From the IMG/VR virus record IMGVR_UViG_3300031994_000006, positions 143,795 through 207,794 of that record: 64,000 nt of DNA; one strand, given 5' to 3'. Shown here piece by piece: positions 14,911 to 32,598 of this stretch; positions within the stretch are counted from its first letter, which is position 1; every line of letters begins with the position of its first letter. The stretch is from a virus (lineage: Duplodnaviria; Caudoviricetes). Both the position numbers and the translations under genes were made by a program. Below the pieces are notes generated by a model that saw only the letters and a program-made list of their open reading frames with translations, had not been told where the DNA came from and made no database searches.

Positions 14911-15270
14911 ATGTCACGCACATTCAAGAAGAACATCCGCTGCTTCGTATGCTGCGGCAGCAATACGGAGTATTACAGGGCACGCCGCCGCAAGGTACGC
15001 CGCCGCTGTAATCATCAGCTTCGTACCCTTATGGCGAACCGCCTCCCCGAGGACGTCGACGACCTCTGGACCGATCCCTGCCTGCCGAAGGAGGATCAGT
15101 GGGACGAGCCTACTGACGGCCACTGGCATGAGAACCTGGATACTCTTAAGATGAATATCCGCATCTACGGACCCAAGGGCCTCTACTATGCCGACATGAA
15201 GCAGTTCAAGTACTACCTCAAGCCCCGTGTAAGCAGGTTTAAGGAAAAGATTTGCATTTTTTTGCATTAA
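14911..15270 (+). CDS. hypothetical basic protein
   Basis: 119 aa ORF (MSRTFKK...) behind the promoter module. Confidence 0.65.
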   Translation: MSRTFKKNIRCFVCCGSNTEYYRARRRKVRRRCNHQLRTLMANRLPEDVDDLWTDPCLPKEDQWDEPTDGHWHENLDTLKMNIRIYGPKGLYYADMKQFKYYLKPRVSRFKEKICIFLH

Positions 15271-15327
15271 AACGGATTTTTTGGGAAAGTCCGTGAATAT
15301 ATAAAATGAATTCAATCTGACAAAGGT

Positions 15328-15441
15328 ATGATTTTCGCAATAACAAATATACGTCCGGTGAACGTCTACGGTAATGATGACCGCAGGCGCGAAGGTACGT
15401 ATGCAGAGGCCGGAAGGCCCGAGGGTTATACGGAAATATAA
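15328..15441 (+). CDS. putative attenuator leader peptide A (MIFAITNIRPVNVYGNDDRRREGTYAEAGRPEGYTEI)
   Basis: 37 codons; 34 of 36 post-start codons are read by tRNAs of the downstream array (counting Tyr via the aberrant GTA tRNAs); stop codon abuts the antiterminator arm. Confidence 0.75.
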   Translation: MIFAITNIRPVNVYGNDDRRREGTYAEAGRPEGYTEI

Positions 15442-15443
15442 TG

Positions 15444-15550
15444 ATCCTGTCAGAAATTCAAGTTCAGATGAGTGCTGATTAGAGATTTCGGAATTATTGA
15501 ATGATATGAACGGATGACAGGATTACCGGAGACGGGAATCCTGTTTTTTT
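15444..15550 (+). terminator. attenuator A: antiterminator arm plus intrinsic terminator
   Basis: ATCCTGTCA (15444-15452) is the exact complement of TGACAGGAT (15515-15523), the 5' arm of the terminator ACAGGATT-ACCGGAGACGGG-AATCCTGT-TTTTTT. Confidence 0.75.
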
Positions 15551-15656
15551 ATGCCTGACGATGTGACCGGCCGTAAACCGGAGCGTTTTATAGATACAAG
15601 GCGACTGCGGCCGCCTGGCAAGAAGGGCCTCAAGGGGTCCGGGCCGAAAACCGCGG

Positions 15657-15673
15657 AGTTCTTTGACATATTG
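15657..15673 (+). promoter_or_regulatory. rrn boxA-like antitermination site
   Basis: AGTTCTTTGACATATTG, recurring with small variations at 23864 and 30177 at the heads of tRNA runs. Confidence 0.65.
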
Positions 15674-15715
15674 ATACATGATATAGCAAGGGTGCGGATT
15701 CGTCCGCACCTGTCT

Positions 15716-15790
15716 GGGGGATTAGCTCAGCCTGGTTAGAGCGCCTGCATGGCATGCAGGAGGTCACGGGTCCGAATCCCGTATCCTCCA
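15716..15790 (+). tRNA. tRNA-Ala(GGC)
   Basis: Cloverleaf, anticodon loop ATGGCAT, T-loop TCCGAAT. Confidence 0.9.
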
Positions 15791-15803
15791 CACTATTTTA
15801 ATT

Positions 15804-15897
15804 GCCGAGATAACGGCGTTGGTCTGTAAAACCAATCTGCTTTAACAAATTGTCGTAGTGGACTCGCAGTAAGCAGGTTCGAATCCTGCTCTCGGCA
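15804..15897 (+). tRNA. aberrant tRNA-Tyr(GTA): no D-arm, long variable region
   Basis: GCCGAGA/TCTCGGC acceptor, TTGGT-CTGTAAA-ACCAA anticodon arm, perfect T arm; only 8 nt between acceptor and anticodon stem. Confidence 0.6.
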
Positions 15898-15906
15898 CAT
15901 TTATCT

Positions 15907-16356
15907 TAACAGAGCCTCCGTAAGCCGAGGAGAAAGGGCGTTGCAGAGCGGTCACCGGGACCTGTCATGAGTTCCGCCCGCCGATGACGCAGCCCGAATG
16001 CGGTGAAGTCCGATATACCGCATACCGTTGGCCGGCTGGGAATCGAAGGTGACGGCACGGAAGGGCGGACCTCCTGCCTGCAGGCACTGAGTTAGGGACA
16101 CAGATTCCGGGATGTCGGGAACACGGTCAAGGTAACGGACAGGCTCTGAACCATAACAGTATGACTGCTCTAATCCGGCGGACGCGCCGGTGGTAATGAG
16201 GCGCCCCATACGCGCTCTCCCCTCCATGGCCAATCGGGGAAGCTCTCGGGGACTGTGAAGGGAAGTCCTGTAGAAGCGACGGGGCGAAGGTCACAGCGGA
16301 AGGTCACGTCCGAAGGTCAAAGGGTGTGATTTAGCGTGCAAAGGCACATGCTGTTA
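15907..16356 (+). ncRNA. large (~450 nt) structured ncRNA candidate
   Basis: No credible ORF; long-range complementarities TAACAG/CTGTTA, CAGAGCCT/AGGCTCTG, TCCGCCC/GGGCGGA; lies between tRNAs. Confidence 0.5.
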
Positions 16357-16359
16357 TTT

Positions 16360-16431
16360 GCGGGTATAGCTCAGGGGTAGAGCGTCTGCTTGCCATGCAG
16401 AAGGCCGTGGGTCCGAATCCCATTACCCGCT
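16360..16431 (+). tRNA. tRNA-Gly(GCC)
   Basis: Cloverleaf, loop TTGCCAT, T-loop TCCGAAT. Confidence 0.9.
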
Positions 16432-16439
16432 CATACCTT

Positions 16440-16511
16440 GCCCTGGTAGCTCAGCGGTAGAGCGCCTGCCTTGTAAGCAGGATGTCGTCGGTTCGAATCC
16501 GGCCCGGGGCT
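16440..16511 (+). tRNA. tRNA-Thr(TGT)
   Basis: Cloverleaf, loop CTTGTAA. Confidence 0.92.
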
Positions 16512-16643
16512 CGTCGAAAGAGATTTGAGGCTCAACGTAACGTCGGCAGTCCCTGAAGCCGTAAGGCGTATTCAAACTGCTGCCCGATCGTAGGTGCGGG
16601 AAGATTCGGTTCCGTTTTCCGGTTATAATAACGGACATTTTCA

Positions 16644-16777
16644 TGCTGGTTTACGCAGTATATCGGCGACTGCACCGGGGCGTACATCCGGACCCTTTCT
16701 GGAAAACCGTCGCAACCGCGGATAAGCGGCGGTGACTATAGCGGGGGTATGAAGGTTCGACTCCTTCGAAGGCACCA
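16644..16777 (+). ncRNA. tRNA-like RNA (GTA loop) with very large variable arm and encoded CCA
   Basis: D arm GCAGT/ACTGC, CCGGG-GCGTACA-TCCGG, ~55-60 nt insert, GAAGG-TTCGACT-CCTTC, ends GGCACCA; imperfect acceptor stem. Confidence 0.5.
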
Positions 16778-16783
16778 AAACTC

Positions 16784-16996
16784 AGTGACGAAGTTTAACG
16801 GATGCTTCCACCTGGGATCCGTGGGGCGGCGCGAATCTGCAGAGCGCCGTGAAACCTGCGCAGCCAGGTTAAAAGGGACGGGATTAGAGGCCAAGCAAGC
16901 CATGGATAAAGCGAGGAGCCGAGTTGACCGTCTTGGAATGCGAAGAACTCCGGCGTAATGAGCCGGGAGTAGCGGGTTCGACTCCCGCCGTCGCTA
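16784..16996 (+). ncRNA. tRNA-like RNA with ~148-nt D-loop insertion (anticodon loop GTAATGA)
   Basis: AGTGACG/CGTCGCT acceptor, GTTT/GAAC D stem, CCGGC/GCCGG anticodon stem, canonical T arm. Confidence 0.6.
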
Positions 16997-17174
16997 CAAT
17001 CGGGATCGGCTGAACGCCGTCTGCTGCAGTCAGCCACGGAATTGCTACTCGTGGTAGCCTTGTGCATTTGTGTACAGGACGAACCGACGCAGGTTAAATG
17101 ACTGTTTACCGGTATGTCGGGTACCGGGGCGGTGAAGATGACGCGAGGCCTTGCGCAGGTCCCGAGCTTTATAC

Positions 17175-17304
17175 GGGGTGTTCCTGCAGTGTCTCAGGAC
17201 CGGGCCGGAGCGGTGAAAGCATGCTGTAGTAGCCGCAGGCCGTCGGTTCCGCACTCAAAAGAAGGGCACGTGTACATGACGCAGGATAAAGTGCACATCC
17301 CACC
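17175..17304 (+). ncRNA. structured ncRNA, paralogue 1 of a GAGCGG-TGAAA-GCATGCT-AGTAGCC family
   Basis: 7-bp terminal stem GGGGTGT/ACATCCC + ACC; core shared with 17605-17729. Confidence 0.55.
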
Positions 17305-17348
17305 CATGACGGCAGCCGGGCCTCCGTCTTATAAATTGTCCGGCACGA

Positions 17349-17421
17349 GGAGCAGTAGTTCAGCTGGTAGAGCGCCACCCTGTCACGGTGGAAGTCGCGG
17401 GTTCGAGTCCCGTCTGTTCCG
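17349..17421 (+). tRNA. tRNA-Asp(GTC)
   Basis: Cloverleaf, loop CTGTCAC. Confidence 0.92.
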
Positions 17422-17604
17422 CATTATGGAGAGACCCCGGGGTCCAAGTCCGCCCGAACACGCGGAAAGGTCGCGACGAGTACGTGTGCAAGGCTCGGGC
17501 CGGTATTACCATGGCGCCTGTGTTGATTCCGGACACAATGGCTCTCCACCTATACGGTTCGATTTGCCGGTCAGACGCCGGGTCCGTTCAAAACCCGGCA
17601 AGCC

Positions 17605-17729
17605 GGGATGCACAGGATAATCCTGTATGCGCTGAGCGGGGTGAAATGCATGCTAAGTAGCCTCCAGTAGGTGTATACAAGGAGAGTAAAAGGGCGATCG
17701 GCATATGCCTGTAGCGTCCGCGTCCCACC
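17605..17729 (+). ncRNA. structured ncRNA, paralogue 2 of the same family
   Basis: 7-bp terminal stem GGGATGC/GCGTCCC + ACC; shared core motifs. Confidence 0.55.
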
Positions 17730-17764
17730 GATACGGTTCCCGGTTCTCCGTGAAACCGGGCTAT

Positions 17765-17836
17765 GCGGAAGTAGCTCAGTGATAGAGCATCTGCCTTCCA
17801 AGCAGAGGGTCGCGGGTTTGAGCCCCGTCTTCCGCT
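17765..17836 (+). tRNA. tRNA-Gly(TCC)
   Basis: Cloverleaf, loop CTTCCAA. Confidence 0.9.
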
Positions 17837-17881
17837 CATACATGCCGGGTGATCCGCGGTTGCATCGCCGCGCCGGCTCCA

Positions 17882-17953
17882 GCTTCTGTAGCTCAGTGGT
17901 AGAGCAATTCACTGTTAATGAAAAGGTCGCAGGTTCGATCCCTGCCGGGAGCG
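17882..17953 (+). tRNA. tRNA-Asn(GTT)
   Basis: Cloverleaf, loop CTGTTAA. Confidence 0.88.
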
Positions 17954-17960
17954 CTTAAAT

Positions 17961-18036
17961 TGGGGTGTAGCTCAGTCGGTTAGAGCGGCGGACTGTTAAT
18001 CCGTGTCTCGCGTGGGTTCGATTCCCACCTCCCCAG
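17961..18036 (+). tRNA. tRNA-Asn(GTT)
   Basis: Cloverleaf, loop CTGTTAA. Confidence 0.88.
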
Positions 18037-18040
18037 CGTT

Positions 18041-18114
18041 TGTACTGTAGCATCAGCGGGCCTATGCACCCCGGTGGTCCGGGGAGATCGGCGGTTCGAA
18101 TCCGCCCGGTACAG
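18041..18114 (+). ncRNA. tRNA-like RNA lacking a 7-nt anticodon loop
   Basis: Acceptor, D and T arms intact; anticodon arm is CCCCGG-TGGT-CCGGGG. Confidence 0.6.
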
Positions 18115-18122
18115 CATAATAT

Positions 18123-18244
18123 GGGGTCTTCGTTCAATGGAAGGTAAGCGCGCGATTGAGGACCTGGCGGAAAGCCGGTCCCGATTTCCTGCCGAAGGAT
18201 GCCGGGGAGACCCGGTGATTGACGTTCGAATCGTCGAGGCCCCG
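18123..18244 (+). ncRNA. tRNA-like RNA with 61-nt D-loop and GAGA tetraloop in place of the anticodon loop
   Basis: GGGGTCT/AGGCCCC acceptor, CCGGG-GAGA-CCCGG, TGACG-TTCGAAT-CGTCG. Confidence 0.6.
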
Positions 18245-18377
18245 CATAGACGTTCGGAGCATCCTGTTTCGTAAGATGCATCGCACTCGGCAGGATCAAC
18301 CCGGATGCGAAGGAGGTGACCGGCACTTCGGCACAGCGCTCAATACCGGAAAATCCGGACCTCCTTTTTACACATAA

Positions 18378-18451
18378 GGGCCTGTAGCTCAGTTGGTTAG
18401 AGCAACAGACTCATAATCTGGAGGTCGTGGGTTCAAGCCCCTCCAGGCCCA
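18378..18451 (+). tRNA. tRNA-Ile2(CAT), probably lysidine type reading ATA
   Basis: Loop CTCATAA; GGGCCTG acceptor with A73 resembles bacterial Ile2; leader A has three ATA codons. Confidence 0.8.
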
Positions 18452-18455
18452 CTCT

Positions 18456-18541
18456 GGCAGGCTATGCGGTGCCGATACTTCTGCGGTGGCTGAACACATT
18501 CGACTGTAAATCGAACTTAAAACGGCCCGTAATCCCCTGCT
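18456..18541 (+). ncRNA. Y-RNA-like scaffold copy 1 (Tyr GTA anticodon-arm insert)
   Basis: GGCTAT...TACTTCT stem enclosing TTCGA-CTGTAAA-TCGAA. Confidence 0.6.
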
Positions 18542-18549
18542 TGTCTCTA

Positions 18550-18641
18550 ATAAACGGCTATACTCGGCGGCTACTTCTGCAAGCTGTAGTCAGCGCCTGA
18601 TTCGTAATCTGGAGAAACGCCCGCCGGTCCTTTCCGTTTAT
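18550..18641 (+). ncRNA. Y-RNA-like scaffold copy 2 (Thr CGT anticodon-arm insert)
   Basis: GGCTAT...TACTTCT...TTTCC enclosing CCTGA-TTCGTAA-TCTGG. Confidence 0.6.
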
Positions 18642-18649
18642 CCTATACA

Positions 18650-18721
18650 TGCGGCTATGTCATCCGTTACTTCTCAAAGAATGATCTGCAACATCGTGTC
18701 CCACGGATGACTTTTTCCGCA
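18650..18721 (+). ncRNA. Y-RNA-like scaffold copy 3 (Cys GCA anticodon-arm insert)
   Basis: GGCTAT...TACTTCT...TTTCC enclosing TGAT-CTGCAAC-ATCG. Confidence 0.6.
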
Positions 18722-18743
18722 GTTTTACGTATAATAAACGACT

Positions 18744-18816
<73 letters not shown>

Positions 18817-18818
18817 CT

Positions 18819-18901
18819 AAACGGCTATCCGGCATGCTACTTCTCAGCTCGATAAAGAATGTAAAGGGTACATGCTATTCCGCTTGCCGGGTTTTCCGTT
18901 T
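18819..18901 (+). ncRNA. Y-RNA-like scaffold copy 4
   Basis: AAACGGCTAT...TACTTCT...TTTTCCGTTT. Confidence 0.55.
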
Positions 18902-18908
18902 TCCATAT

Positions 18909-18983
18909 GTTCCCAAGGGCGATATAGGTCGAGCCACAGGACTTTCGATCCTGAAAAAGTGGGTTCGATTCCCACTGGGAATA
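18909..18983 (+). tRNA. tRNA-Glu(TTC)
   Basis: Cloverleaf, loop CTTTCGA. Confidence 0.85.
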
Positions 18984-18989
18984 CTCAAT

Positions 18990-19063
18990 GCTCCCATAGG
19001 CGAACTGGTTAAGCCGTCACACTCTCAATGTGGAGATTCCGGGTTCGAGTCCCGGTGGGAGTA
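18990..19063 (+). tRNA. tRNA-Glu(CTC)
   Basis: Cloverleaf, loop CTCTCAA. Confidence 0.88.
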
Positions 19064-19146
19064 CGCAAAGTCCCGGCTGGGCCTGCTGTTCATGCAGGAC
19101 TTAGGGGCCGGCGCCGTGGGGCCACCGTCAAAAACCCCACTCCTTC

Positions 19147-19221
19147 GGGGCGTTAGCTCAGTCCGGTCAGAGCACCTGCTTTGCAAGCAGGGGGTCGACG
19201 GTTCGAATCCGTCACGCTCCA
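19147..19221 (+). tRNA. tRNA-Ala(TGC)
   Basis: Cloverleaf, loop TTTGCAA, G3:U70. Confidence 0.92.
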
Positions 19222-19341
19222 CGAAAGGGAAAGCGTGTAGAAACCGGCGGCGGCCGGCGGAGCCTCAGGCAGGATATCCCCTCGGCATAACGGACCGGCT
19301 CTGACCGGTACCATGCCGTCAGTCTTTGGTCCTGTCAACCT

Positions 19342-19422
19342 GCCGGAATGGGACAGTGGTCGACTCCATCGGTATCGTAAACCGACTCGAAAGACACGGC
19401 GGTTCGAATCCGCCTTCCGGCT
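19342..19422 (+). tRNA. tRNA-Thr(CGT) with 12-nt variable arm
   Basis: Cloverleaf, loop ATCGTAA. Confidence 0.82.
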
Positions 19423-19427
19423 CCTAA

Positions 19428-19556
19428 GGCAGGCTATGGCCGCTGCTACTTCTCCTTAGCGGAGTACGCGAGAAGGCTCAGCGACGTGATTCATTGCACG
19501 TGTACCGGGGTTCGAATCCCCGCCCCGCTGTCAGTCGTCACGGTCTGTTCCCTGCC
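19428..19556 (+). ncRNA. Y-RNA-like scaffold copy 5 enclosing a whole tRNA-like cloverleaf (19458-19530)
   Basis: GGCAGGCTAT...TACTTCT...TTCCCTGCC; inner cloverleaf has an 8-nt loop ATTCATTG. Confidence 0.6.
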
Positions 19557-19565
19557 CCTGTACAG

Positions 19566-19666
19566 TCCGGCTATCCGCCTGTGGTTACTTCTGAAGCTGG
19601 TTACTCGTAGGTTCGAATCCTGCTTTTTCCGCCATGGGAAAAAAGTCACCGCACGGTCTTTCCGGA
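19566..19666 (+). ncRNA. Y-RNA-like scaffold copy 6 (T arm + loop-closed acceptor minihelix)
   Basis: GTAGG-TTCGAAT-CCTGC then TTTTTCC-GCCATG-GGAAAAA inside the GGCTAT/TACTTCT/TTTCC stem. Confidence 0.6.
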
Positions 19667-19776
19667 TTTCCATAAGCGTTCAGCCGCCCGGGCAGGTCAC
19701 ATACAGGCGACAAGCCCCGTGACTCCGGACGGGCCTGCGCGTTTAACGGTTATATACGGAAACCAAAGACATATCA

Positions 19777-20349
19777 ATGCGATACATTTTCTTCGACACC
19801 GAGACGACGGGCGTTCCCAGGAACTACAAGGCGCCGTCGACGGATACGGACAACTGGCCGCGGCTCGTGCAGCTCGGCTGGATCCTGGCGGACGGACCTG
19901 ACACAGTCGTCCATACGGGAAACCTGATCGTCAGGCCCGACGGATTCGAGATACCCGAGGAGGCCGCGAACGTGCACGGTATACACACGGCCGACGCTCT
20001 GGAGAAGGGCATACCCCTGGCCGACGCGATCAATCAGTTCATAGAGGATCTCAATCAGGCCGACCTGATTGTAGGACATAATGTCGGTTTCGACCTCAAG
20101 ATCGTGGGCGCCGAGATGGTCCGCCTGGGTATCGGCGACATGATGGAATCCAAGCCTCATTTCGACACGATGCAGGCGTCGACGAGCTACTGCGCCATCC
20201 CTGGCAAGTTCGGGTACAAGTGGCCGAAGCTCATGGAGCTGCATCAGAAGCTGTTCGAATGCGGCTTCGAGGATGCGCACGACGCCATGGCAGATATCAC
20301 GGCGACGGCCAGGTGCTTCTGGGAAATGATGAGAAGAGGCCTTGCATAG
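19777..20349 (+). CDS. DEDDh 3'-5' exonuclease (DnaQ-like)
   Basis: FFDTETTG, VGHNVGFD and HDAMADI motifs. Confidence 0.9.
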   Translation: MRYIFFDTETTGVPRNYKAPSTDTDNWPRLVQLGWILADGPDTVVHTGNLIVRPDGFEIPEEAANVHGIHTADALEKGIPLADAINQFIEDLNQADLIVGHNVGFDLKIVGAEMVRLGIGDMMESKPHFDTMQASTSYCAIPGKFGYKWPKLMELHQKLFECGFEDAHDAMADITATARCFWEMMRRGLA

Positions 20350-20350
20350 T

Positions 20351-20440
20351 ATGATAGTGATGAATACCGAGGCGATAGTCGCCGCCTGTGTGATAGGGGC
20401 GTGCCTCATAGCATGGATGATATTCCATAAGGACCGTTAG
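20351..20440 (+). CDS. small membrane peptide (29 aa)
   Basis: MIVMNTEAIVAACVIGACLIAWMIFHKDR, coupled to the exonuclease stop. Confidence 0.4.
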   Translation: MIVMNTEAIVAACVIGACLIAWMIFHKDR

Positions 20441-20449
20441 GTCCTGAAT

Positions 20450-20539
20450 GCACGGGTAAAGCGTAACTGGATGACCGCCCCGGTCTACGAAACCGGTCTA
20501 TCTGAAAAGAAGTTGCGGGTTCGAATCCCGCCCCGTGTA
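20450..20539 (+). tRNA. tRNA-Arg(ACG) with 18-nt variable arm
   Basis: GCACGGG/CCCGTGT acceptor, loop CTACGAA, canonical T arm. Confidence 0.8.
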
Positions 20540-20668
20540 CACAGACAGGGCAGCACTCCGTAGAGTCTGAGATTCACCATTCTCTTTGCGGACCATACTG
20601 TCCTTTGTCGCGGAATTCGCCGGCATGCCCGGTGATATATAAACCAAAATCAACCAAACAGCAAGACT

Positions 20669-21346
20669 ATGAAGAAGCTCATGGGCCTGGCGTTTATCTG
20701 CCTCATGGCCTGTATGACATTCATGCTCACCGGCTGCACCAAGTGTGCCGGAGACAAGACCGAGCCCGCCATGGACAGTGTCGCGACTGATTCTGCAAAG
20801 ACAGATACCGTCGTGACGGAGGGCTACAACGTGGAGCAGGTCATCTCCACCGATCGTCAGGCCATGTTCATGGCCTACAAGCAGGACTATCGCTGGTATG
20901 AGACCTGCATCGTCCTGAAGGACTTCCTTGACGAGGACTGCGACGGCACCGTCGTCGGCCTGTCCAATATCTTCCAGGTCGTCTTTGAGGAGGGCAACGG
21001 CGCCGATGTTTATGTCGTCATGTATGCGCATGCGGCCAACAAGGGCGATTCTGTGACGACCGTGCATTCATTCTGGATTGAAGATTATGACATGGGTAAG
21101 GAGCCTGTGAAGATGATTACGTTCGCAGAGGCCTTCCAGAAGATCCAGGAGACTAACTATCCGAAACCGCATTCCAAGCACTGCGTGCTCCGTAAGGAGG
21201 TGGGACCGAAGGACTGCAATCCTCAGTACATCTTCGGCAACGCACAGGCTCAGCTCTATGTGGACGCCGTAACCGGCAAGGTCAGTCCTGACAATCCCGT
21301 ATTCGAGGGCGTAAAGCTGGCCAAGCCTCTCGGTGAGTGGCCCTGA
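20669..21346 (+). CDS. lipoprotein
   Basis: Signal peptide MKKLMGLAFICLMACMTFM-LTGC lipobox. Confidence 0.75.
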   Translation: MKKLMGLAFICLMACMTFMLTGCTKCAGDKTEPAMDSVATDSAKTDTVVTEGYNVEQVISTDRQAMFMAYKQDYRWYETCIVLKDFLDEDCDGTVVGLSNIFQVVFEEGNGADVYVVMYAHAANKGDSVTTVHSFWIEDYDMGKEPVKMITFAEAFQKIQETNYPKPHSKHCVLRKEVGPKDCNPQYIFGNAQAQLYVDAVTGKVSPDNPVFEGVKLAKPLGEWP

Positions 21347-21451
21347 TAAAGGGACAGGATAACACATGATAAATTGCAGATTTGAAATATTCAAATCTGC
21401 AATTTTAGCATTTATGACCTCAGGTTATATAATGCGTTAAAATATTACAAT

Positions 21452-21524
21452 CGGGATGTAGCCCAGTAGGTAGGGCGCTACGTTCGGGACGTAGAGGTCG
21501 CTGGTCCGAGTCCAGTCATCCCGA
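21452..21524 (+). tRNA. tRNA-Pro(CGG)
   Basis: Cloverleaf, loop TTCGGGA, T-loop TCCGAGT. Confidence 0.9.
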
Positions 21525-21527
21525 CTT

Positions 21528-21663
21528 CGGAAGATGGTGTAGGCGCACAGCCGGGTTGGTCCGGCACCCGCGGAAATAAGAGGATCCGGAATACCGCGGA
21601 GCAATGGGCATTCGTGCAATGCCGTATGCGGTGACCGAAGCAGCGAGCGGTCTCTTCCGTCCA
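21528..21663 (+). ncRNA. tRNA-like RNA with 7-bp acceptor stem and encoded CCA, non-canonical interior
   Basis: CGGAAGA/TCTTCCG-T-CCA with several internal hairpins; abuts tRNA-Pro(GGG). Confidence 0.45.
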
Positions 21664-21737
21664 CGGGGTGTAGCTCAGTAGGTTAGAGTACGCGTCTGGG
21701 GGGCGTGAGGTCGTCCGTTCGAGTCGGATCACCCCGA
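21664..21737 (+). tRNA. tRNA-Pro(GGG)
   Basis: Cloverleaf, loop CTGGGGG. Confidence 0.9.
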
Positions 21738-21741
21738 CAAT

Positions 21742-21813
21742 CAGGATATAGCACAGCGGCAGTGTGCATGGTTTGGGACCATGCGGTCGGCGGTTCGAAT
21801 CCGTCTATCCTGA
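21742..21813 (+). tRNA. tRNA-Pro(TGG)
   Basis: Cloverleaf, loop TTTGGGA. Confidence 0.9.
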
Positions 21814-21994
21814 CAGATCAATGAGGATCCTCTGAGATGGGTGCTCCAAGGTAGAAGCTTGAGGATTTAAACGGATAATGTTTTATGCGACAACAAAAGC
21901 AGCTGTTCATTCAGCAGCGCCCGTGGGTATTAATCCCGATGAAAATATCGCCTCATTTGATTTAAACGGATACAAACAGACAAAGACATACAGT

Positions 21995-22438
21995 ATGAGA
22001 TTTCTTCGTTCAGAGACCGTCGTATCGGTCGAGGATCTTAAGGCACAGGGACTGCAGGAGCAGCGCGTGCAGACGGACTATCACGGCAAGAACCGTGAGA
22101 GCATGTGGGGCTATCTCCTCGGGGACGGCTCGGTCGTCCTGGTCAACACGCCGGTTGCCGCCCATCCGTTTCCGCTCTGGGGACTTGTCGCGTCGCCTGA
22201 GCATGTCAAGGACGGCGACGGCAAATGCAGGCTTGTCATTCTTGACGATATCATCAAGGAGACTCCGGACGAGGCGGTTATCACCCTGATGCAGGAGGCA
22301 TATGACTTCCTGAATGAGAAGGGCGAGCTCAAGGAGGACGGTACCCTTGATACAGGACTCTATATCGATCGCCGCAATGCGGAAATCGAGAAATTGCGCC
22401 TGGAGAAGGTCGACAGGCCTGAAGAGGATGAACGCTGA
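21995..22438 (+). CDS. hypothetical protein
   Basis: ORF with likely start MRFLRSE at 21995. Confidence 0.6.
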   Translation: MRFLRSETVVSVEDLKAQGLQEQRVQTDYHGKNRESMWGYLLGDGSVVLVNTPVAAHPFPLWGLVASPEHVKDGDGKCRLVILDDIIKETPDEAVITLMQEAYDFLNEKGELKEDGTLDTGLYIDRRNAEIEKLRLEKVDRPEEDER

Positions 22439-22439
22439 T

Positions 22440-22607
22440 ATGGAAGACGTCGACAAGGAGATATTGAACCGTGACAGGCACTGGAACGAGTTCATAGCAG
22501 AATGGGAGTCTGAACACGGCGTATCCGCGTCGGGCGAGGACTCTGAGGTCCTCTTCAGGGAGTTCATGACCTGGGAGGAGAACAGAGGTTTGAATCCGGG
22601 ACAGTAG
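22440..22607 (+). CDS. hypothetical acidic small protein
   Basis: MEDVDKEILNRDRHWNEF..., coupled to the upstream stop. Confidence 0.5.
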   Translation: MEDVDKEILNRDRHWNEFIAEWESEHGVSASGEDSEVLFREFMTWEENRGLNPGQ

Positions 22608-22617
22608 CCCGGGTTAT

Positions 22618-22691
22618 GTTCCCGTAGCTCAGCCGGTTAGAGTATCACCATGACAAGGTGGGGGTCGGCGGTCCGAATCCGCCCGGGAACA
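22618..22691 (+). tRNA. tRNA-Val(GAC)
   Basis: Cloverleaf, loop ATGACAA, T-loop TCCGAAT. Confidence 0.9.
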
Positions 22692-22692
22692 C

Positions 22693-22983
22693 ATGAGCAC
22701 GTTTGACGTATACAGATCCTGCGGCCGCGTGGTCGGCGGCAGGGAATCGAAGGCCGCGGCCGATCTCGCGTTCGGCAGATGTTCCTGGTGGAAACGGGGA
22801 TGGCTGCATTTCGTCGTATGGAACGAGAGGCGCAGGCGGTATAATGCCGCCGAGATCAGGCTGCCGGGTGACAGTCCGTGGTCCGGGTGCCTGCAGTCCG
22901 TATTTACCGCCCTCACGGCCCTGTTCTTCCTGTCGGTGCTCATATATGCGGCCGTGGAAATAATAGGATCGATGTTCCCGTAG
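22693..22983 (+). CDS. hypothetical membrane protein
   Basis: 96 aa with a C-terminal hydrophobic helix; the 3' end overlaps tRNA-Val(TAC) by 10 nt. Confidence 0.45.
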   Translation: MSTFDVYRSCGRVVGGRESKAAADLAFGRCSWWKRGWLHFVVWNERRRRYNAAEIRLPGDSPWSGCLQSVFTALTALFFLSVLIYAAVEIIGSMFP

Positions 22984-23048
22984 CTCAGCCGGTTCAGAGC
23001 ACCTGGCCTACAACCAGGGGGTCGGCGGTTCGAATCCGTCCGGGAACA
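22974..23048 (+). tRNA. tRNA-Val(TAC)
   Basis: Cloverleaf, loop CCTACAA (C33). Confidence 0.88.
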
Positions 23049-23055
23049 CAGACGC

Positions 23056-23129
23056 ACGCCCGTAGCTCAGCGGATCAGAGCGCCGGACTCCGGATCCGGA
23101 GGTCGCGGGTTCGAGTCCCGCCGGGCGTA
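23056..23129 (+). tRNA. tRNA-Arg(CCG)
   Basis: Cloverleaf, loop CTCCGGA. Confidence 0.92.
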
Positions 23130-23143
23130 CGGATATATACACC

Positions 23144-23848
23144 ATGATAAAATCAGTTCAATACTGTTTACATTGCGGTAAACCTTTGAATAAGACACAG
23201 AAAAAATTCTGTTCAAGATCTTGTTCAGCATCATTTACGAATAAGGGAAAAATTCACTCAGAGTCAAGCAGACATAAATGCAGTGAATCTGTAAAACGTA
23301 TCCGTAGGCATACTGAAAGAATCTGTAAAGTATGCGGATGTTCTTATTATTATGTCAAACATATATCCACTAAGATTTTCTGTTCTCATAAATGTTTTGA
23401 ATATTATAAATCACATAAGAATGAATTTCTTTCACCTGATTCAATCAGGCGGATGTCAGAAGGCGGACGGAAGAGCATGGATATACAAAAAGATTCCAGG
23501 AGATCCAGAAATGAAATAGAGTTCTGTTCATTATGTGAGGAAAAATTCGGTACAGCTGCAGTTTTGCATAATATACCTTACTTTAATGGATGGGATGCTG
23601 ATGTTATTATACCTGAATTAAAAATAGCGATATTATGGAATGGTGCCTGGCACTATAAACAGATATATGATAAAAGTTCATTGATTCAGATTAAGAATCG
23701 TGATAACATAAAAATATCTGAAATCAAAAAAGCAGGATTTATTCCATATGTTATTAAGGATTTGGGAAAGGCAAATTCTGAATTTGTCAAAAATCAATTT
23801 AATATTTTTTGTAAATGGATTGATGACCTTTCAGAATCTGTGCATTAA
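23144..23848 (+). CDS. putative homing-type endonuclease (Zn-finger repeats + Vsr/PD-(D/E)xK-like C-terminus)
   Basis: CLHCG..FCSRSC and CKVCG..FCSHKC repeats; DADVIIPELKIAILWNGAWHY; visibly AT-rich. Confidence 0.65.
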   Translation: MIKSVQYCLHCGKPLNKTQKKFCSRSCSASFTNKGKIHSESSRHKCSESVKRIRRHTERICKVCGCSYYYVKHISTKIFCSHKCFEYYKSHKNEFLSPDSIRRMSEGGRKSMDIQKDSRRSRNEIEFCSLCEEKFGTAAVLHNIPYFNGWDADVIIPELKIAILWNGAWHYKQIYDKSSLIQIKNRDNIKISEIKKAGFIPYVIKDLGKANSEFVKNQFNIFCKWIDDLSESVH

Positions 23849-23863
23849 ATATATAAATAGTTT

Positions 23864-23880
23864 AGTTCTTTGACTTATTG
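23864..23880 (+). promoter_or_regulatory. rrn boxA-like site
   Basis: AGTTCTTTGACTTATTG ahead of the Met/Met/Ala/tmRNA run. Confidence 0.6.
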
Positions 23881-23890
23881 AAACCTATAT

Positions 23891-23975
23891 AGCGGGATGG
23901 TGTAGTTGGTAACACAACAGCCTCATAAGCTGTGGACAGATAATGCTTGCGCAGGTTCGAGTCCTGCTCCCGCAA
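23891..23975 (+). tRNA. tRNA-Met(CAT), 1:72 mismatch, 17-nt variable arm
   Basis: Loop CTCATAA, canonical T arm. Confidence 0.75.
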
Positions 23976-23987
23976 CATAATTAACAT

Positions 23988-24059
23988 CGCGGTGGTGGTA
24001 GCAATGGTAGCTCGCAAGACTCATAATCTTGAGACGTGGTTCGAATCCAACGACCGCAA
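23988..24059 (+). tRNA. tRNA-Met(CAT), initiator-like C1:A72, imperfect T stem
   Basis: Loop CTCATAA; CGCGGT/ACCGCA acceptor. Confidence 0.6.
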
Positions 24060-24064
24060 CAAAG

Positions 24065-24142
24065 ATTCGGCTATTGGTTGGATTACTTCTGTAAACTTCT
24101 TAACCATGACATCCAGGAATTCATCCTTCCGTCTTTCCGAAT
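24065..24142 (+). ncRNA. Y-RNA-like scaffold copy 7
   Basis: ATTCGGCTAT...TACTTCT...TTTCCGAAT. Confidence 0.55.
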
Positions 24143-24238
24143 TGTTCTTTCCGGGGATGACGACATGTACGGCAACCGGTTGCCGTGAAACAGGTCCGTC
24201 TGATGACGTTTGTCCGGTGACGCATGTCCACCCGGGGT

Positions 24239-24336
24239 TTCCGGCTATCGGCCAGATTACTTCTATGCAGCGGGCGTTGACCGTCCGCGGCAGACCATCT
24301 TACACAGTCTTGTAACATCTGTCTGTATTTCCGGAG
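24239..24336 (+). ncRNA. Y-RNA-like scaffold copy 8
   Basis: TCCGGCTAT...TACTTCT...TTTCCGGA with two internal hairpins. Confidence 0.55.
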
Positions 24337-24340
24337 TTTT

Positions 24341-24414
24341 GGGGTATTAGCTCAGTTGGCCAGAGCGCTTGCTTCGCATGCAAGAGGTCGACGGTTCGAA
24401 TCCGTCATGCTCCA
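24341..24414 (+). tRNA. tRNA-Ala(CGC)
   Basis: Cloverleaf, loop TTCGCAT, G3:U70. Confidence 0.92.
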
Positions 24415-24415
24415 C

Positions 24416-24568
24416 TTTGACGAATGGCTATTGTACAGCATACTTCTCCAAAGTATGTTTCCAAGAGGCAGGTCGCGGGTTCGAATCCCGTCCGTCCCCA
24501 ACGGGGACGTAGCTCAGCGGTTCAGAGCGGCATCTATTACTGGGCTGTACGGCTTTCCAGGAGTCAAG
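24416..24568 (+). ncRNA. Y-RNA-like scaffold copy 9 with circularly permuted tRNA domain (YrlA-like)
   Basis: T arm, then CGTCCCC-AAC-GGGGACG closed acceptor, then D arm, inside the GGCTAT/TACTTCT/TTTCC stem. Confidence 0.7.
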
Positions 24569-24574
24569 GCAAAC

Positions 24575-24703
24575 ATATCCGGCTATTCGGGAGGATACTT
24601 CTGAGGGAATGTAGTGTCGCCGGTTCGAGCCCGGCTATTTCCGTGGGAAATATGGCGCAGGTGGTAGCGCATACGTGTATGGCCTGCTGGGGTTTCCGGA
24701 TAT
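24575..24703 (+). ncRNA. Y-RNA-like scaffold copy 10 with circularly permuted tRNA domain (YrlA-like)
   Basis: ATGTA-GTGTC-GCCGG TTCGAGC CCGGC-TATTTCC GTG GGAAATA-TG-GCGC AGGTGGTA GCGC-A-TACGT. Confidence 0.7.
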
Positions 24704-25183: not shown

Positions 25184-25629
25184 GGGCTTGTATTTGGGTT
25201 TGACGGGCGGAATGATAAGGAGGACATGCAGGAAGGCAGTTTCCATAAAGGCAAAGCCAATAACCGGCAACAAGAAAGCAAAGGTCGTCAAGATGACGGC
25301 AGCTCGCGCGACCATGAAGATGGCTGCTTAATCCGATAGGATTCAAGTTTCGCGCCTGGGATTGCAGGGGATCCCAAGGGACATAAGGGCGAGCCTTCGG
25401 GCAGCCTGCCCCCGCCGACGAGGTCTGGACGGCATCCCTTACCGCAAAGCCGTAACCTGGTGGAACAGTTGACCTCCGGTCAGCCCCTCAGCGGAAGATC
25501 CTCCGGGATCGTTTGACCGCACAGGAGAAGAATACTCCTGAGGCCTCCGGGCCTGAACAAATTGAAAAGCATGTACAATCCTCTGATGCTGAACGTTCGG
25601 ACGGGGGTTCGAATCCCCCCAGGTCCACC
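25184..25629 (+). ncRNA. ssrA: tmRNA
   Basis: GGGCTTG/CAGGTCC acceptor with G3:U70, TTTTGAC 5' motif, T arm GGGGG-TTCGAAT-CCCCC, tag ORF 25266-25331 GNKKAKVVKMTAARATMKMAA*. Confidence 0.9.
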
Positions 25630-25734
25630 CTGAAAGCGGTCCAATAGTCGGATCGTTTTTTATTATGACATGAGAAGAACCTGTCATAATAAATAATATG
25701 ACCAACCTGGCAAGGCATGCCTCAGGGCATGTAC

Positions 25735-25763
25735 AGGTCCTCCGGACAGGGGGACCTTTTTTT
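25735..25763 (+). terminator. intrinsic terminator ending tRNA array A / tmRNA
   Basis: AGGTCCTCC...GGGGGACCT followed by a T run. Confidence 0.65.
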
Positions 25764-29833: not shown

Positions 29834-29950
29834 ATGAGATCGTTGTTACAAAAATCATTCAGCTCAAAGTGCCTCCTTAAGGGCATTCAGAGTATGTCGC
29901 AGTTTACCTGCTGGCATATTCAGCTGGATAATATGTACACGGTCGAGTAG
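29834..29950 (+). CDS. putative attenuator leader peptide B (MRSLLQKSFSSKCLLKGIQSMSQFTCWHIQLDNMYTVE)
   Basis: 38 codons; 29 of codons 2-31 are read by tRNAs of the downstream array; the last codons form a pairing arm. Confidence 0.75.
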   Translation: MRSLLQKSFSSKCLLKGIQSMSQFTCWHIQLDNMYTVE

Positions 29951-30087
29951 CGAATCAGGAGTTCAGAGACTGTGTATGAATCCGGGAGAAAACGGAAAGA
30001 CGCAGTCAAGTAAAGGAACCCAATCACAAAGTTTCCATAATTTCCAAGGGACTGCGTAATCGAAAGAGGACGCAGTCCTGTTCTTTT
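29936..30087 (+). terminator. attenuator B: five alternating pairing segments ending in an intrinsic terminator
   Basis: TACACGGTC 29936, GACTGTGTA 29968, ACGCAGTC 30000, GACTGCGT 30050, ACGCAGTC 30070, then GTTCTTTT. Confidence 0.75.
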
Positions 30088-30094
30088 ATACATC

Positions 30095-30171
30095 GGGGGA
30101 GTAGCTCAGTAGGTAGAGCGCCGGACTGAAAATCCGGGTCGTTAGCGGCGGTTCGATTCCGCCCTCCCCCA
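30095..30171 (+). tRNA. tRNA-Phe(GAA)
   Basis: Cloverleaf, loop CTGAAAA, 9-nt variable region. Confidence 0.9.
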
Positions 30172-30176
30172 CTGAG

Positions 30177-30193
30177 AGTTCTTTGACATGTTG
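30177..30193 (+). promoter_or_regulatory. rrn boxA-like site
   Basis: AGTTCTTTGACATGTTG just after the first tRNA of array B. Confidence 0.6.
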
Positions 30194-30231
30194 GCACAGC
30201 TGAATGAACGGACGGAAGGCCGTCCGTATAT

Positions 30232-30307
30232 TGGGAGATAGTTTAGCAGGTTAAAATTTCGGTCTGATACACCGGCGTCCCGGGTTCGAATCCCGGCCTC
30301 CCAACCA
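30232..30307 (+). tRNA. tRNA-Ile(GAT)
   Basis: Cloverleaf, loop CTGATAC, encoded CCA. Confidence 0.85.
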
Positions 30308-30378
30308 AAACTAAATCATATTTGATCTATGGATAAACGTGATGACAAATCCGGTAAACGGATTACACCAGTCTAACA

Positions 30379-30469
30379 GCCTCCATCGTATATCGGTAAG
30401 TGTCTGGAGACAGGCGGATTACTTCGGTCTTTTAAACCGACAAGCAGGGTTCGACTCCCTGTGGGGGCA
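30379..30469 (+). tRNA. tRNA-Lys(TTT) with hairpin insertion in the D-loop
   Basis: GCCTCCA/TGGGGGC acceptor, loop CTTTTAA; 29-nt D-loop containing TGTC-TGGA-GACA. Confidence 0.75.
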
Positions 30470-30626
30470 CGATCAGTCAGGCCTGCGGCATAGGCGCCCA
30501 ATTTGCCGTAGGAGGACTGTGTAGTTGCGTAACGGCTTACACCAAACGTACGGGATACTTAGGGTCCGTGCGGAGCCCGGGTGGCGAAAAAATTCCCGCG
30601 CCGTGCCGAGCGATAGCGGCACATTC

Positions 30627-30700
30627 GCTCCGTTAGCTCAGTTGGTTAGAGTAGGTGTCTCTTAAACATCGGGTCCAGGGTTCGAATCCCTGCCGGAGCA
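30627..30700 (+). tRNA. tRNA-Lys(CTT)
   Basis: Cloverleaf, loop CTCTTAA. Confidence 0.9.
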
Positions 30701-30768
30701 CTTTCGTTCAGTGAATCGCCTCCGTTCAGTAATTGCTGAACGGAGCGGTTTTACTGAACGCCTTATAT

Positions 30769-30840
30769 TGGGGTATAGTATATCGGTTATTATTTCGGAT
30801 TCTGGTCCCGAAGAGCTCTGTTCGACTCAGAGTGCCCCAA
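30769..30840 (+). tRNA. tRNA-Gln(CTG)
   Basis: Cloverleaf, loop TTCTGGT. Confidence 0.82.
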
Positions 30841-30846
30841 CGACAC

Positions 30847-30917
30847 TGCCCTGTGGTGTAACGGCGGCACATCAGCTTTTGGATCTGACAGACCGGGTTC
30901 GACTCCCGGCGGGGCTG
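30847..30917 (+). tRNA. tRNA-Gln(TTG)
   Basis: Cloverleaf, loop TTTTGGA. Confidence 0.82.
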
Positions 30918-30946
30918 CGATACATAGGGAAATTTATTTGTAATAT

Positions 30947-31777
30947 ATGGATTTTGATTTCGACAGCCCCAGGAATGGAAGACAGATTGTCAATGAGGTA
31001 TTCGAGACCTTTTACGGTAATCCTGTAAGAACCTGTTATAGAATTTCAAGGATTGACAGATCTAAATGGACACGTCTTGACTACGCACTTGAACGATATA
31101 ATAATTATTTGTCAAAATATAATACGGTTTCATTCCAAGGTGATATTGACCGCGGTATATTACAGGAAGGACTTGTCCTTTCATATCCGGTAAAGAAAGT
31201 CATGGATGAAATCAGGAAATGTATGGAGTCTGACGGTAATATAATAGAGGCTTTAGCTGAATCTGAATCAGTTATAAAGATTCTTGTGGCTAAGGGATTT
31301 ACCGATAATGTCAAGGAATCTCTGAAATCTTTGATAGATTTATGTGGATGGCATCTGACAGGCAGCGGTGAATATTCCAAAGGACTTGATGTCATATATT
31401 ATGAGTCAAAATTTCCGGCGGATATTACGGATCTGATATATTCAAAATATAAAAAACTCTATCATATAACGCCTGCCCGGAATTTCAGGTCGATTGAGAA
31501 GAAGGGACTGATACCGAGATCCTATAACAAGAGATCGGACTATCCGGACCGTGTGTATTTCCTGAAGACTGATAATGCGGCAGAGTATGAAAACCTCGCG
31601 AAATCGTCGAATCCGGATATTCATGAATGGTCGCTCCTTGAAATAGACATCTCAAAGGAACCCGTCACCGGACGCCGGTACAGATTCTATAATGATCCGT
31701 TTACGAACAATGCAGTTTTCACATATGACAATATTCATCCCGGACTTGTAACCCTTAAGAGGACTTTCCGGGTATGA
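30947..31777 (+). CDS. protein with C-terminal ADP-ribosyltransferase-fold (Tpt1/KptA/DUF952-like) domain
   Basis: KLYHITPARNFRSIEKKGLIP...RVYF...LLEID...YNDP...AVFTYDNIHP; visibly AT-rich. Confidence 0.6.
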   Translation: MDFDFDSPRNGRQIVNEVFETFYGNPVRTCYRISRIDRSKWTRLDYALERYNNYLSKYNTVSFQGDIDRGILQEGLVLSYPVKKVMDEIRKCMESDGNIIEALAESESVIKILVAKGFTDNVKESLKSLIDLCGWHLTGSGEYSKGLDVIYYESKFPADITDLIYSKYKKLYHITPARNFRSIEKKGLIPRSYNKRSDYPDRVYFLKTDNAAEYENLAKSSNPDIHEWSLLEIDISKEPVTGRRYRFYNDPFTNNAVFTYDNIHPGLVTLKRTFRV

Positions 31778-31795
31778 TGCGTTTAATTTTAACAT

Positions 31796-31867
31796 GGGGG
31801 TCTTAGTTTAACGGTAGAATGACAGATTGTGGCTCTGCAGACGTAGGTTCGACTCCTACATTCCCCC
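31796..31867 (+). tRNA. tRNA-His(GTG)
   Basis: Loop TTGTGGC, G-1:C73; two acceptor mismatches. Confidence 0.8.
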
Positions 31868-31873
31868 CTTTAC

Positions 31874-31944
31874 TGGTCCATGGTGTAACGGTAGCACGTC
31901 AGATTCTGGCTCTGGAAGTGCGGGTTCGAATCCTGCTGGACCAA
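31874..31944 (+). tRNA. tRNA-Gln(CTG)
   Basis: Cloverleaf, loop TTCTGGC. Confidence 0.9.
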
Positions 31945-31966
31945 CGTTGCAGGGTCGCTCCCTGCC

Positions 31967-32037
31967 GCGCCGACGGCTGGTAAGCCGCGGTCCAGGACCC
32001 CAATCCTCACCGGGAGGTTCGATTCCTCTATGGCGTG
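31967..32037 (+). ncRNA. degenerate tRNA-like element
   Basis: T arm GGAGG-TTCGATT-CCTCT, AGGA-CCCCAA-TCCT arm, weak acceptor. Confidence 0.4.
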
Positions 32038-32127
32038 CAACTGGATATTTAAACGTTGAGGGCCGTGGAGGTCTTCGGTCCACCGGTAACCAGTCCGGCG
32101 TCCGGCCGTACGATAACGGCCGCATAC

Positions 32128-32198
32128 AGGCCTGTGGTGTAACGGTAGCATGCCGGTCTCCAAAACCGTCGGTCTTGGTTCGAGTCCTGGCAGGCCTG
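32128..32198 (+). tRNA. tRNA-Trp(CCA)
   Basis: Cloverleaf, loop CTCCAAA. Confidence 0.9.
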
Positions 32199-32354
32199 CT
32201 TCGTTCTGGTCACGAAGAGCGAGCTCCGTAAAGTTACCGAAACTCCGCCTGCGGCAATTCGCGATAGCCTGCAGACCGGTCACGAAAAGTAGGGAGGATG
32301 GGAGACGTAGGACTTGAGAAAACCCTAACGTATGGTAATGGGCAGGACGATTAT

Positions 32355-32428
32355 GCCGGCATAGCTTAGCGGTCTAAAGCGCAGCACTCATAATGCTGAG
32401 ATCGATGGTTCGAATCCATCTGCCGGTA
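32355..32428 (+). tRNA. tRNA-Met(CAT) (elongator Met or Ile2)
   Basis: Cloverleaf, loop CTCATAA. Confidence 0.85.
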
Positions 32429-32430
32429 CA

Positions 32431-32502
32431 GAGTAGTTGTCCGAGCGGTTTAGGTCGTGGTCTGCAAAACCACGCAGGTGGGTTCGACTCCCACACTGCT
32501 CT
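32431..32502 (+). tRNA. tRNA-Cys(GCA)
   Basis: Cloverleaf, loop CTGCAAA, U73. Confidence 0.9.
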
Positions 32503-32517
32503 CAAATTAAATTATAT

Positions 32518-32595
32518 AAAAAACGGTGTAACTTCGCGGGTGCGGAGCAGGGCCCAAAGCTCTGAAGACAGGTCCGAGTCCTGTACCCGTTTTTA
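32518..32595 (+). ncRNA. degenerate tRNA-like element
   Basis: AAAAACGG/CCGTTTTT stem, CAGGGC-CCAAA-GCTCTG, ACAGG-TCCGAGT-CCTGT. Confidence 0.4.
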
Positions 32596-32598
32596 TAT

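Follow-up and report, generated by a model that had tools for sequence, protein, structure and literature searches.

Large phages can carry dozens of tRNA genes; the reason for this, and the way in which the expression of these genes is timed, are open questions. Here, we examined a window (the whole stretch of 64,000 nucleotides analyzed) that forms the final part of a 207,794-bp IMG/VR virus record (G+C content, 54%). All the tRNA genes of the record fall inside this window, namely 41 genes called by ARAGORN, several weaker ones, and a tmRNA, and every one of them is on the + strand. An original prediction, made from the letters of the sequence, had interpreted the region upstream of the first tRNA array as an attenuator, in which the position of a ribosome on a short leader ORF selects termination or read-through. 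If this is true, the tRNA arrays of phages would be demand-regulated and switched on when the matching codons are decoded slowly. Every computational test able to refute the interpretation favored it, and we consider that this region (element A) is probably a ribosome-mediated leader-peptide attenuator before array A, sensing decoding by the array's own tRNA species.

The tRNA genes are distributed over two arrays (Table 1). Array A contains genes for Ala (three), a Tyr-like tRNA, Gly (two), Thr-TGT and Thr-CGT, Asp, Asn (two), an Ile2-like CAT tRNA, Met, Arg-CCT, Arg-ACG, and Arg-CCG, Glu (two), Pro (three), and Val (two); protein genes interrupt it, as does at least one additional strong terminator (21373-21403). 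Array B contains genes for Phe, Ile-GAT, Lys (two), Gln (three), His, Trp, Met, Cys, Leu (four), Arg-TCT, Ser (four), and Thr-GGT. ARAGORN gave many false calls at low thresholds, and a sub-threshold call was used only when Rfam hits or T-arm repeats supported it as well. From its best matches, the CAT tRNA is taken to be of the Ile2 type, which would decode ATA. The Tyr-like tRNA has a D arm of only 5 nt and a variable region of 33 nt, and its anticodon arm carries GTA. The tmRNA (25184-25630; 72.6 bits) lies between the two arrays and has its own terminator (25735-25757), and the gene for an RNase T-family exonuclease, a candidate tRNA 3'-end processing enzyme, lies within array A (19777-20349).

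Table 1. Coordinates of the features at the two candidate attenuators and in the two tRNA arrays (positions in the window)
Feature	Position	Strand	Basis or remark
Conserved region preceding leader A, presumably its promoter and 5' UTR	15250-15327	+	Conserved in L047-L051
Segment 1, predicted anti-antiterminator	15307-15322	+	Pairs with 15448-15460 in minimum-energy folds
Leader ORF A (P0002), 37 codons + TAA	15328-15441	+	Read directly; ATG at 15328, TAA at 15439-15441
Segment 2, predicted antiterminator 5' strand	15442-15452	+	Begins 0-2 nt past the stop codon; pairs with 15515-15525
Variable spacer, antiterminator loop	15453-15514	+	Adds inner helices to 2:3
Segment 3, common to antiterminator and terminator	15515-15525	+	Folds
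Predicted intrinsic terminator	15517-15551	+	8-bp stem, 12-nt loop with inner 3-bp helix, T7
GC-rich structured spacer before boxA-like motif	15552-15657	+	Conserved in L050/L051
boxA-like rRNA-operon antitermination motif, GTTCTTTGACATATTG	15658-15673	+	16-mer matches Bacteroidota rrn spacers
tRNA array A	15716-24415	+	tRNA calls; protein genes interspersed
Tyr-GTA tRNA, D-arm-truncated	15804-15897	+	Rfam 39.6 bits; alignment shows anticodon arm
CAT tRNA	18378-18452	+	Best E. coli matches, full length, annotated tRNA-Ile
tRNA-Arg(ACG)	~20450-20540	+	Rfam 30 bits; ARAGORN at lower threshold
Candidate attenuator B: 38-codon leader, five-segment relay, terminator	29834-30088	+	Directly before tRNA-Phe
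Leader ORF B	29834-29950	+	Codon match to array B
tRNA array B	30095-34888	+	tRNA calls; boxA-like copy at 30178 after tRNA-Phe
Lys-TTT tRNA, below default threshold	30400-30470	+	Second line of support
Ser-TGA tRNA, below default threshold	32980-33064	+	Second line of support
Ser-CGA tRNA, below default threshold	33069-33155	+	Second line of support

The leader ORF of element A lies 275 nt upstream of the first tRNA gene on the same strand and was also called as a gene (37 aa) by gene callers on independent assemblies; direct reading gave exactly the 37 codons listed in the original prediction. Under standard wobble rules, 34 of the 37 are read by array-A tRNAs (A-type) and two (ATT and TTC) by array-B tRNAs (B-type), a count that rests partly on three low-confidence tRNA assignments (GTA, ACG, and CAT). 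Acceptance of these three is the condition for the earlier claim that ATT and TTC are the only codons without a reader in array A. When the small ORFs of the whole 208-kb genome (1,418 ORFs of 25-60 codons, all six frames) were scored as (A minus B)/length, leader A ranked first for A-type codons, and with high-confidence tRNAs only (25 A-type versus 2 B-type codons) it was still among the top two. It samples 18 of the 21 distinct array-A anticodons, a coverage that matches the highest among small ORFs of 30-45 codons and that 11 of 74,648 37-codon windows of long ORFs equaled. The codons are laid out as an inventory, without runs of one codon. They include those for the Pro and Val tRNAs located past the strong terminator at 21373-21403, a point that counts against the attenuator reading. 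Synonymous choice follows the arrays as well, with Thr ACA/ACG and Arg AGG/CGY in leader A and Thr ACC and Arg AGA in leader B. The codon match of leader A to array A, extreme against these genome-wide nulls, is the strongest evidence for an attenuator.

The pairing partners named in the original prediction were all found. The proposed antiterminator arm ATCCTGTCA (15444-15452) has its first base 3 nt past the stop codon (a 2-nt gap) and pairs over 9 bp with TGACAGGAT (15515-15523) in the 5' arm of the terminator; the resulting helix between segments 2 and 3 (2:3) extends to 11 bp, including one G-U pair, with a helix energy of about -12.8 kcal/mol. The proposed upstream partner, TCTGACA at 15316-15322, belongs to a 1:2 helix that grows to 13 bp with a 3-nt bulge and encloses the whole leader ORF. 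The terminator, which escaped a simple scan because its loop exceeds 8 nt, has a stem of 15517-15524/15537-15544 (-17.4 kcal/mol) followed by seven T residues at 15545-15551. In shuffles of the 206 nt upstream of the terminator, a Watson-Crick complement of at least 9 nt to its 5' arm arose in 532 of 200,000 cases (P = 0.0027, or 0.27%). Over 15440-15552, the terminator fold (-31.4 kcal/mol) and the forced antiterminator fold (-30.8 kcal/mol) differ by 0.6 kcal/mol.

In a crude co-transcriptional fold series, 1:2 was present from a transcript end at 15462 until segment 3 was complete, 2:3 was the minimum-energy fold with the end at 15526-15536, and 1:2 together with 3:4 came back once the 3' arm of the terminator was transcribed. 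The folds were then constrained by a 30-nt ribosome footprint at codons 5 to 35 or at the stop codon. With RNA polymerase at 15530-15536, antiterminator formation was 0/9 for a ribosome at the stop codon, where segment 2 lies inside the footprint, and 8-9/9 in all the other ribosome states, so that the first two limbs of the original prediction hold in silico. The third limb of the original prediction, that termination is restored when no ribosome is present, fared less well: 1:2 is the earlier helix to form, but the fold of lowest energy switches to 2:3 as soon as segment 3 has emerged. The no-translation state therefore appears ambiguous in these folds, and this limb is the weakest of the three. 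Whichever ribosome state is imposed, the terminator is the preferred equilibrium fold of the full-length RNA; therefore, the switch must be kinetic.

Several independent assemblies encode either the exact leader-A peptide or a variant of 36 aa (P0003), and element A was aligned across five sequences, comprising the window and four related contigs (L047, L049, L050, and L051). In the ORF, codon 5 changes from ATA to GTA (I5V) and remains A-type, codon 16 is deleted in frame, two substitutions are synonymous, and the stop codon TAA becomes TAG. The gap from the stop codon to segment 2 is 1-2 nt in all five sequences, and the segment-2 core ATCCTGTCA is invariant. Segments 2, 3, and 4 are likewise invariant, except that A is replaced by G at 15525 with a U-G pair kept, and the terminator stem does not vary while its loop does. 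The spacer of approximately 60 nt at 15453-15514 is largely replaced in L047-L051, and the inner helices on 2:3 persist with 20-22 pairs in both versions; with only two spacer haplotypes, this conservation is no covariation statistic. Segment 1 pairs over 10 bp via partly different bases in L047, L049, and L050, and its pairing is lost in L051, so that the fold series was the same in all five sequences except for the missing 1:2 in L051. Such variation is what a coding region joined to paired arms should show.

A translated sensor might also act on some other output, such as Rho-dependent polarity before boxA loads, the stability or processing of the transcript, or a response to amino acid starvation instead of tRNA supply. 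The stretch downstream of the leader is long and untranslated, the boxA signals point to Rho as a concern, tRNA charging affects the speed of decoding as much as tRNA amount does, and the equilibrium folds always favor the terminator. However, the conserved 2:3 and 3:4 alternatives, with segment 2 held within 1-2 nt of the stop codon throughout the alignment, fit control of the terminator at 15517-15551 specifically, and we consider another output improbable.

The contexts on both sides of element A differ as well. The upstream gene is swapped in the relatives (L049 and L050 carry a 340-aa protein gene with its own terminator), and in L049-L051 a conserved block of about 75 nt follows the terminator of the previous gene. 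This block corresponds to what is presumably the promoter and 5' UTR of the leader (15250-15327), and no promoter consensus was recognized upstream of leader A in a sequence scan. The array also begins in different ways, in that tRNA-Ala is present or absent or a canonical tRNA-Tyr comes first, and 15552-15657 is replaced in L047 and L049 by a stretch running into that tRNA-Tyr. The module is thus kept while the upstream gene and the array start differ, suggesting that the attenuator module travels with the array. In place of the Tyr-like tRNA of the window, L047 and L049 carry a canonical 86-nt tRNA-Tyr. In L050 and L051, the boxA-like motif is followed directly by the Tyr-like tRNA, and in the window an insertion of tRNA-Ala(GGC) and a hairpin separates the two, indicating mosaic arrays whose units are single tRNA genes.

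Further homologs were sought through the neighboring proteins. No IMG/VR relatives were found for P0001 or for the 145-aa and 276-aa proteins. A metagenome scan with P0001 returned L045, a contig that ends five codons into the leader, and a relative of the L045 type has a called 37-aa gene 55 nt past the homologous gene. Another P0001 match, L046, was set aside as an AT-rich phage with no tRNAs nearby. A phmmer search of the whole library gave one representative only.

Downstream of the terminator, the boxA-like 16-mer GTTCTTTGACATATTG matched at least 120 genome contigs in a scan of 185,579 species genomes, almost all of them Bacteroidota among the matches listed. In three complete rrn contigs (L059, L063, and L065), the spacer tRNAs are on one side of it and the 23S gene is on the other; this is the classical site of spacer boxA, and the motif also resembles the E. 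coli boxA sequence. The four copies of GTTCTTTGACAT are on the + strand (15658, 30178, 38358, and, with one mismatch, 23865); one copy follows a protein gene and precedes tRNA-Met, and another precedes the protein gene at 38448-38954. We also considered GTTCTTTGACAT as a promoter (TTGACA; the copy before gene 38448) and rejected it: the -10 spacing is wrong, the motif lies 13 nt before the 5' end of a tRNA in the relative G003, and it matches the Bacteroidota 16S-23S spacer motif. As in rrn antitermination (boxA, NusB/NusE), where many Bacteroidota have the identical spacer motif, the 16-mer at 15658 stands ahead of a long untranslated RNA operon, and it would accompany the attenuator on the downstream side without being the attenuator itself. 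We read it as an rRNA-type antitermination signal acting on RNA arriving from upstream, and its position and likeness to the E. coli boxA suggest that it may bind Nus factors (NusB/NusE). The preceding spacer (15552-15657) possibly holds boxB-like hairpins. A literature search with boxA sequence strings found nothing useful. Two strong terminator-like hairpins lie inside the arrays, one at 30715-30749 after tRNA-Lys-CTT in array B (-21.5 kcal/mol) and the other at 21373-21403, after gene 20669-21346 and before the Pro tRNAs; polymerase may pass both by boxA-dependent antitermination.

The 105 nt between the terminator and the boxA-like motif (15552-15657) could contain a promoter, in which case read-through would contribute only a minor part of array-A transcription. 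For array B, as for L047 and L049, the first tRNA sits between the terminator and the boxA-like motif; therefore, that tRNA at least would depend on read-through.

The presence of a Bacteroidota rrn-spacer motif in the phage implies a Bacteroidota host, so that the host phylum of an uncultured phage can be called from the motif. Translation in Bacteroidota is not reliant on Shine-Dalgarno pairing, and such a host would explain why no Shine-Dalgarno sequence is present at a useful distance from the start of leader A. This point bears on the reading of 15300-15560 as an untranslated, folded part of an rRNA-style tRNA operon leader, either a processing stem or a boxB-like element conserved for its structure, in which the frame is incidental. 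The predicted fold of the region is unusually stable (z = -3.1; no shuffle was equally stable), the 13-bp helix encloses the ORF, the start codon lies within a helix, and a boxA-like motif stands downstream, all of which, like the absent Shine-Dalgarno sequence, would suit a structural RNA. However, a host phylum without reliance on Shine-Dalgarno pairing weakens the point about the absent Shine-Dalgarno sequence, the changes in the relatives respect the frame (a 3-nt deletion, two synonymous substitutions, and a stop-to-stop change), and no Rfam family matched 15200-15720, even at E-values up to 5. The codon match to the array, the synonymous choice, and the mirror case at array B are also left unexplained, and we therefore give this reading little credence.

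The mirror case, element B, has a leader of which 28 of the 38 codons are B-type and seven are A-type, making it the third most B-like of the 1,418 small ORFs. It samples 18 of the 19 array-B anticodons, a coverage that none of the 74,648 windows of long ORFs (37 codons) reached, and its peptide has no record outside this genome. Its relay segments are at 29937-29944, 29968-29975, 30000-30007, 30050-30057, and 30070-30077. The last seven codons of leader B are A-type and contain the first pairing segment (segment 0), and in masked folds a ribosome from codon 31 onward blocks 0:1. The B-type codons end at codon 31 in leader B, and the A-type codons of leader A, where segment 2 lies past the stop codon, run to the last codon; in leader B, they would end at codon 31 because stalling stops mattering there, segment 0 being masked. 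This agreement between geometry and codon layout at both elements was not built into the tests. The terminator of element B ends approximately 7 nt before tRNA-Phe, and there is therefore no room for a promoter between them.

Least probable of all is an ordinary gene end, in which a chance or unrelated 37-codon ORF is followed by a terminator (15517-15551) of the upstream unit (14911-15270 plus the ORF) and array A is transcribed from its own downstream promoter, the codon match and the complement being coincidental: hairpin-plus-T-run terminators do close many genes here (14803, 25735, 27380, and 36405), 165 nt separate the terminator from the first tRNA, and no promoter has been mapped anywhere, but this reading is opposed by the first rank of the ORF among 1,418 and its top-value anticodon coverage, the mirror-image ORF before array B, the low P value of the complement, the retention of the module with the array despite a swapped upstream gene, and the identity of the putative downstream "promoter" motif with the Bacteroidota rrn spacer boxA.

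From the anatomy, alternative folds, statistics, and conservation of element A, we infer the steps of leader translation, termination, and read-through, together with a promoter and a biological signal, as follows. A transcript beginning upstream of 15328 would carry the 37-codon leader, written in codons decoded by array A. When decoding is fast, the ribosome would be at the stop codon while RNA polymerase synthesizes segment 3; it would cover segment 2, the terminator would fold, and transcription would end before the array. If any of the tRNA species sampled (approximately 18) were in short supply, not charged, or damaged, the ribosome would lag, segment 2 would pair with segment 3, the terminator would be blocked, and polymerase would read on, meeting the rRNA-type boxA before transcribing the tRNA genes. 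With no ribosome, segment 1 could hold segment 2 and favor termination. Element B would act likewise on array B, so that the two leaders would partition the genetic code. Our opinion is evenly balanced on the broader proposal that the two codon-inventory attenuators, each gating the array that decodes its own leader and handing polymerase to boxA, together form a homeostat. Such a homeostat would let the phage replace exactly the failing half of the tRNA pool, for example after host tRNA decay or an anticodon-nuclease defense; the sensor of tRNA supply would be the ribosome itself, and the arrangement could be widespread in tRNA-rich phages.

Element A resembles the amino acid leader attenuators of enterobacteria (trpL, hisL, leuL, pheL, ilvGMEDA, and thr) in having a short ORF and a terminator with a 5' arm that can also pair elsewhere, and in both the position of the ribosome selects the helix, by prediction in the case of element A. 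The trp-type logic of the original prediction stands as far as the ribosome-position folds are concerned, and a ribosome at the stop codon covers the antiterminator strand in the trp attenuator as in element A. The layout, in contrast, is not of the trp type: segment 1 precedes the ORF instead of forming part of it, and one or two codons for each of approximately 18 tRNA species replace the single-codon runs. Several amino acids per leader are also found in ilvGMEDA (Ile/Leu/Val) and thr (Thr/Ile). Further differences from the enterobacterial leaders are that element A precedes tRNA genes rather than biosynthetic enzymes, that two leaders split the code between two arrays, and that the host phylum would be Bacteroidota. 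The gathering scores of the Rfam families Trp_leader, His_leader, Leu_leader, and Thr_leader were not reached at element A. His-type attenuators have a multi-segment relay (A:B, B:C, C:D, D:E, E:F); element B likewise has five mutually exclusive segments, which would pass the position of the ribosome on to the terminator, and element A is a short three- or four-segment form. T-box riboswitches, of which Rfam found no match at element A, also link read-through to the state of specific tRNAs, as proposed here. However, a T-box binds one uncharged tRNA directly without translation and controls synthetase or amino acid genes, whereas element A would read out many tRNAs at once through the ribosome. 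A literature search on leader-peptide control of phage tRNA genes found no relevant account.

Comparable arrangements occur in distant phages, recognized through a common 5'-3' exonuclease of at most 41% identity, in which small ORFs enriched in the amino acids that the downstream tRNAs carry are followed by a terminator and then by these tRNAs. The order of leader ORF, terminator, boxA-like motif, and tRNAs is also found in distant relatives. Three of these phages (L041, L043, and L044, corresponding to G003, G001, and G002) encode a conserved leader-peptide family, M-I/T-T-L-x-Y ... Q-L-C-E-E-P-F-Y-A, before the first tRNA-Cys, and a CCCTCC...GGAGGG terminator, a boxA-like motif, and tRNAs come next; only the distant exonuclease is common to them and the phage of the window. 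In contrast, no such leader was found within 550 nt before the second tRNA block of G004.

If the proposed mechanism is correct, the trp/his attenuation logic would extend to RNA genes, to a readout of multiple tRNAs, and to Bacteroidota. An attenuator combined with an rrn-type boxA suggests that these phages treat tRNA arrays as rRNA-like operons. The attenuator idea is directly testable with the 260-nt element and defined tRNA pools.

Some tRNA-like sequences of the window are unusual. The anticodon loops of two tRNAs (18041-18115 and 19457-19532) are odd, one being a 6-nt loop with "gg" and one an 8-nt loop ("tcat"); these could be decayed genes or frameshift-type tRNAs. Uncalled pieces resembling T arms or D arms occur at 24503-24643, 16690-16780, 16917-16997, 19606-19631, and 24462-24540. 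Among them are weak YrlA-like matches and a weak Rfam tRNA match spanning 141 nt, which may have an intervening sequence inside.
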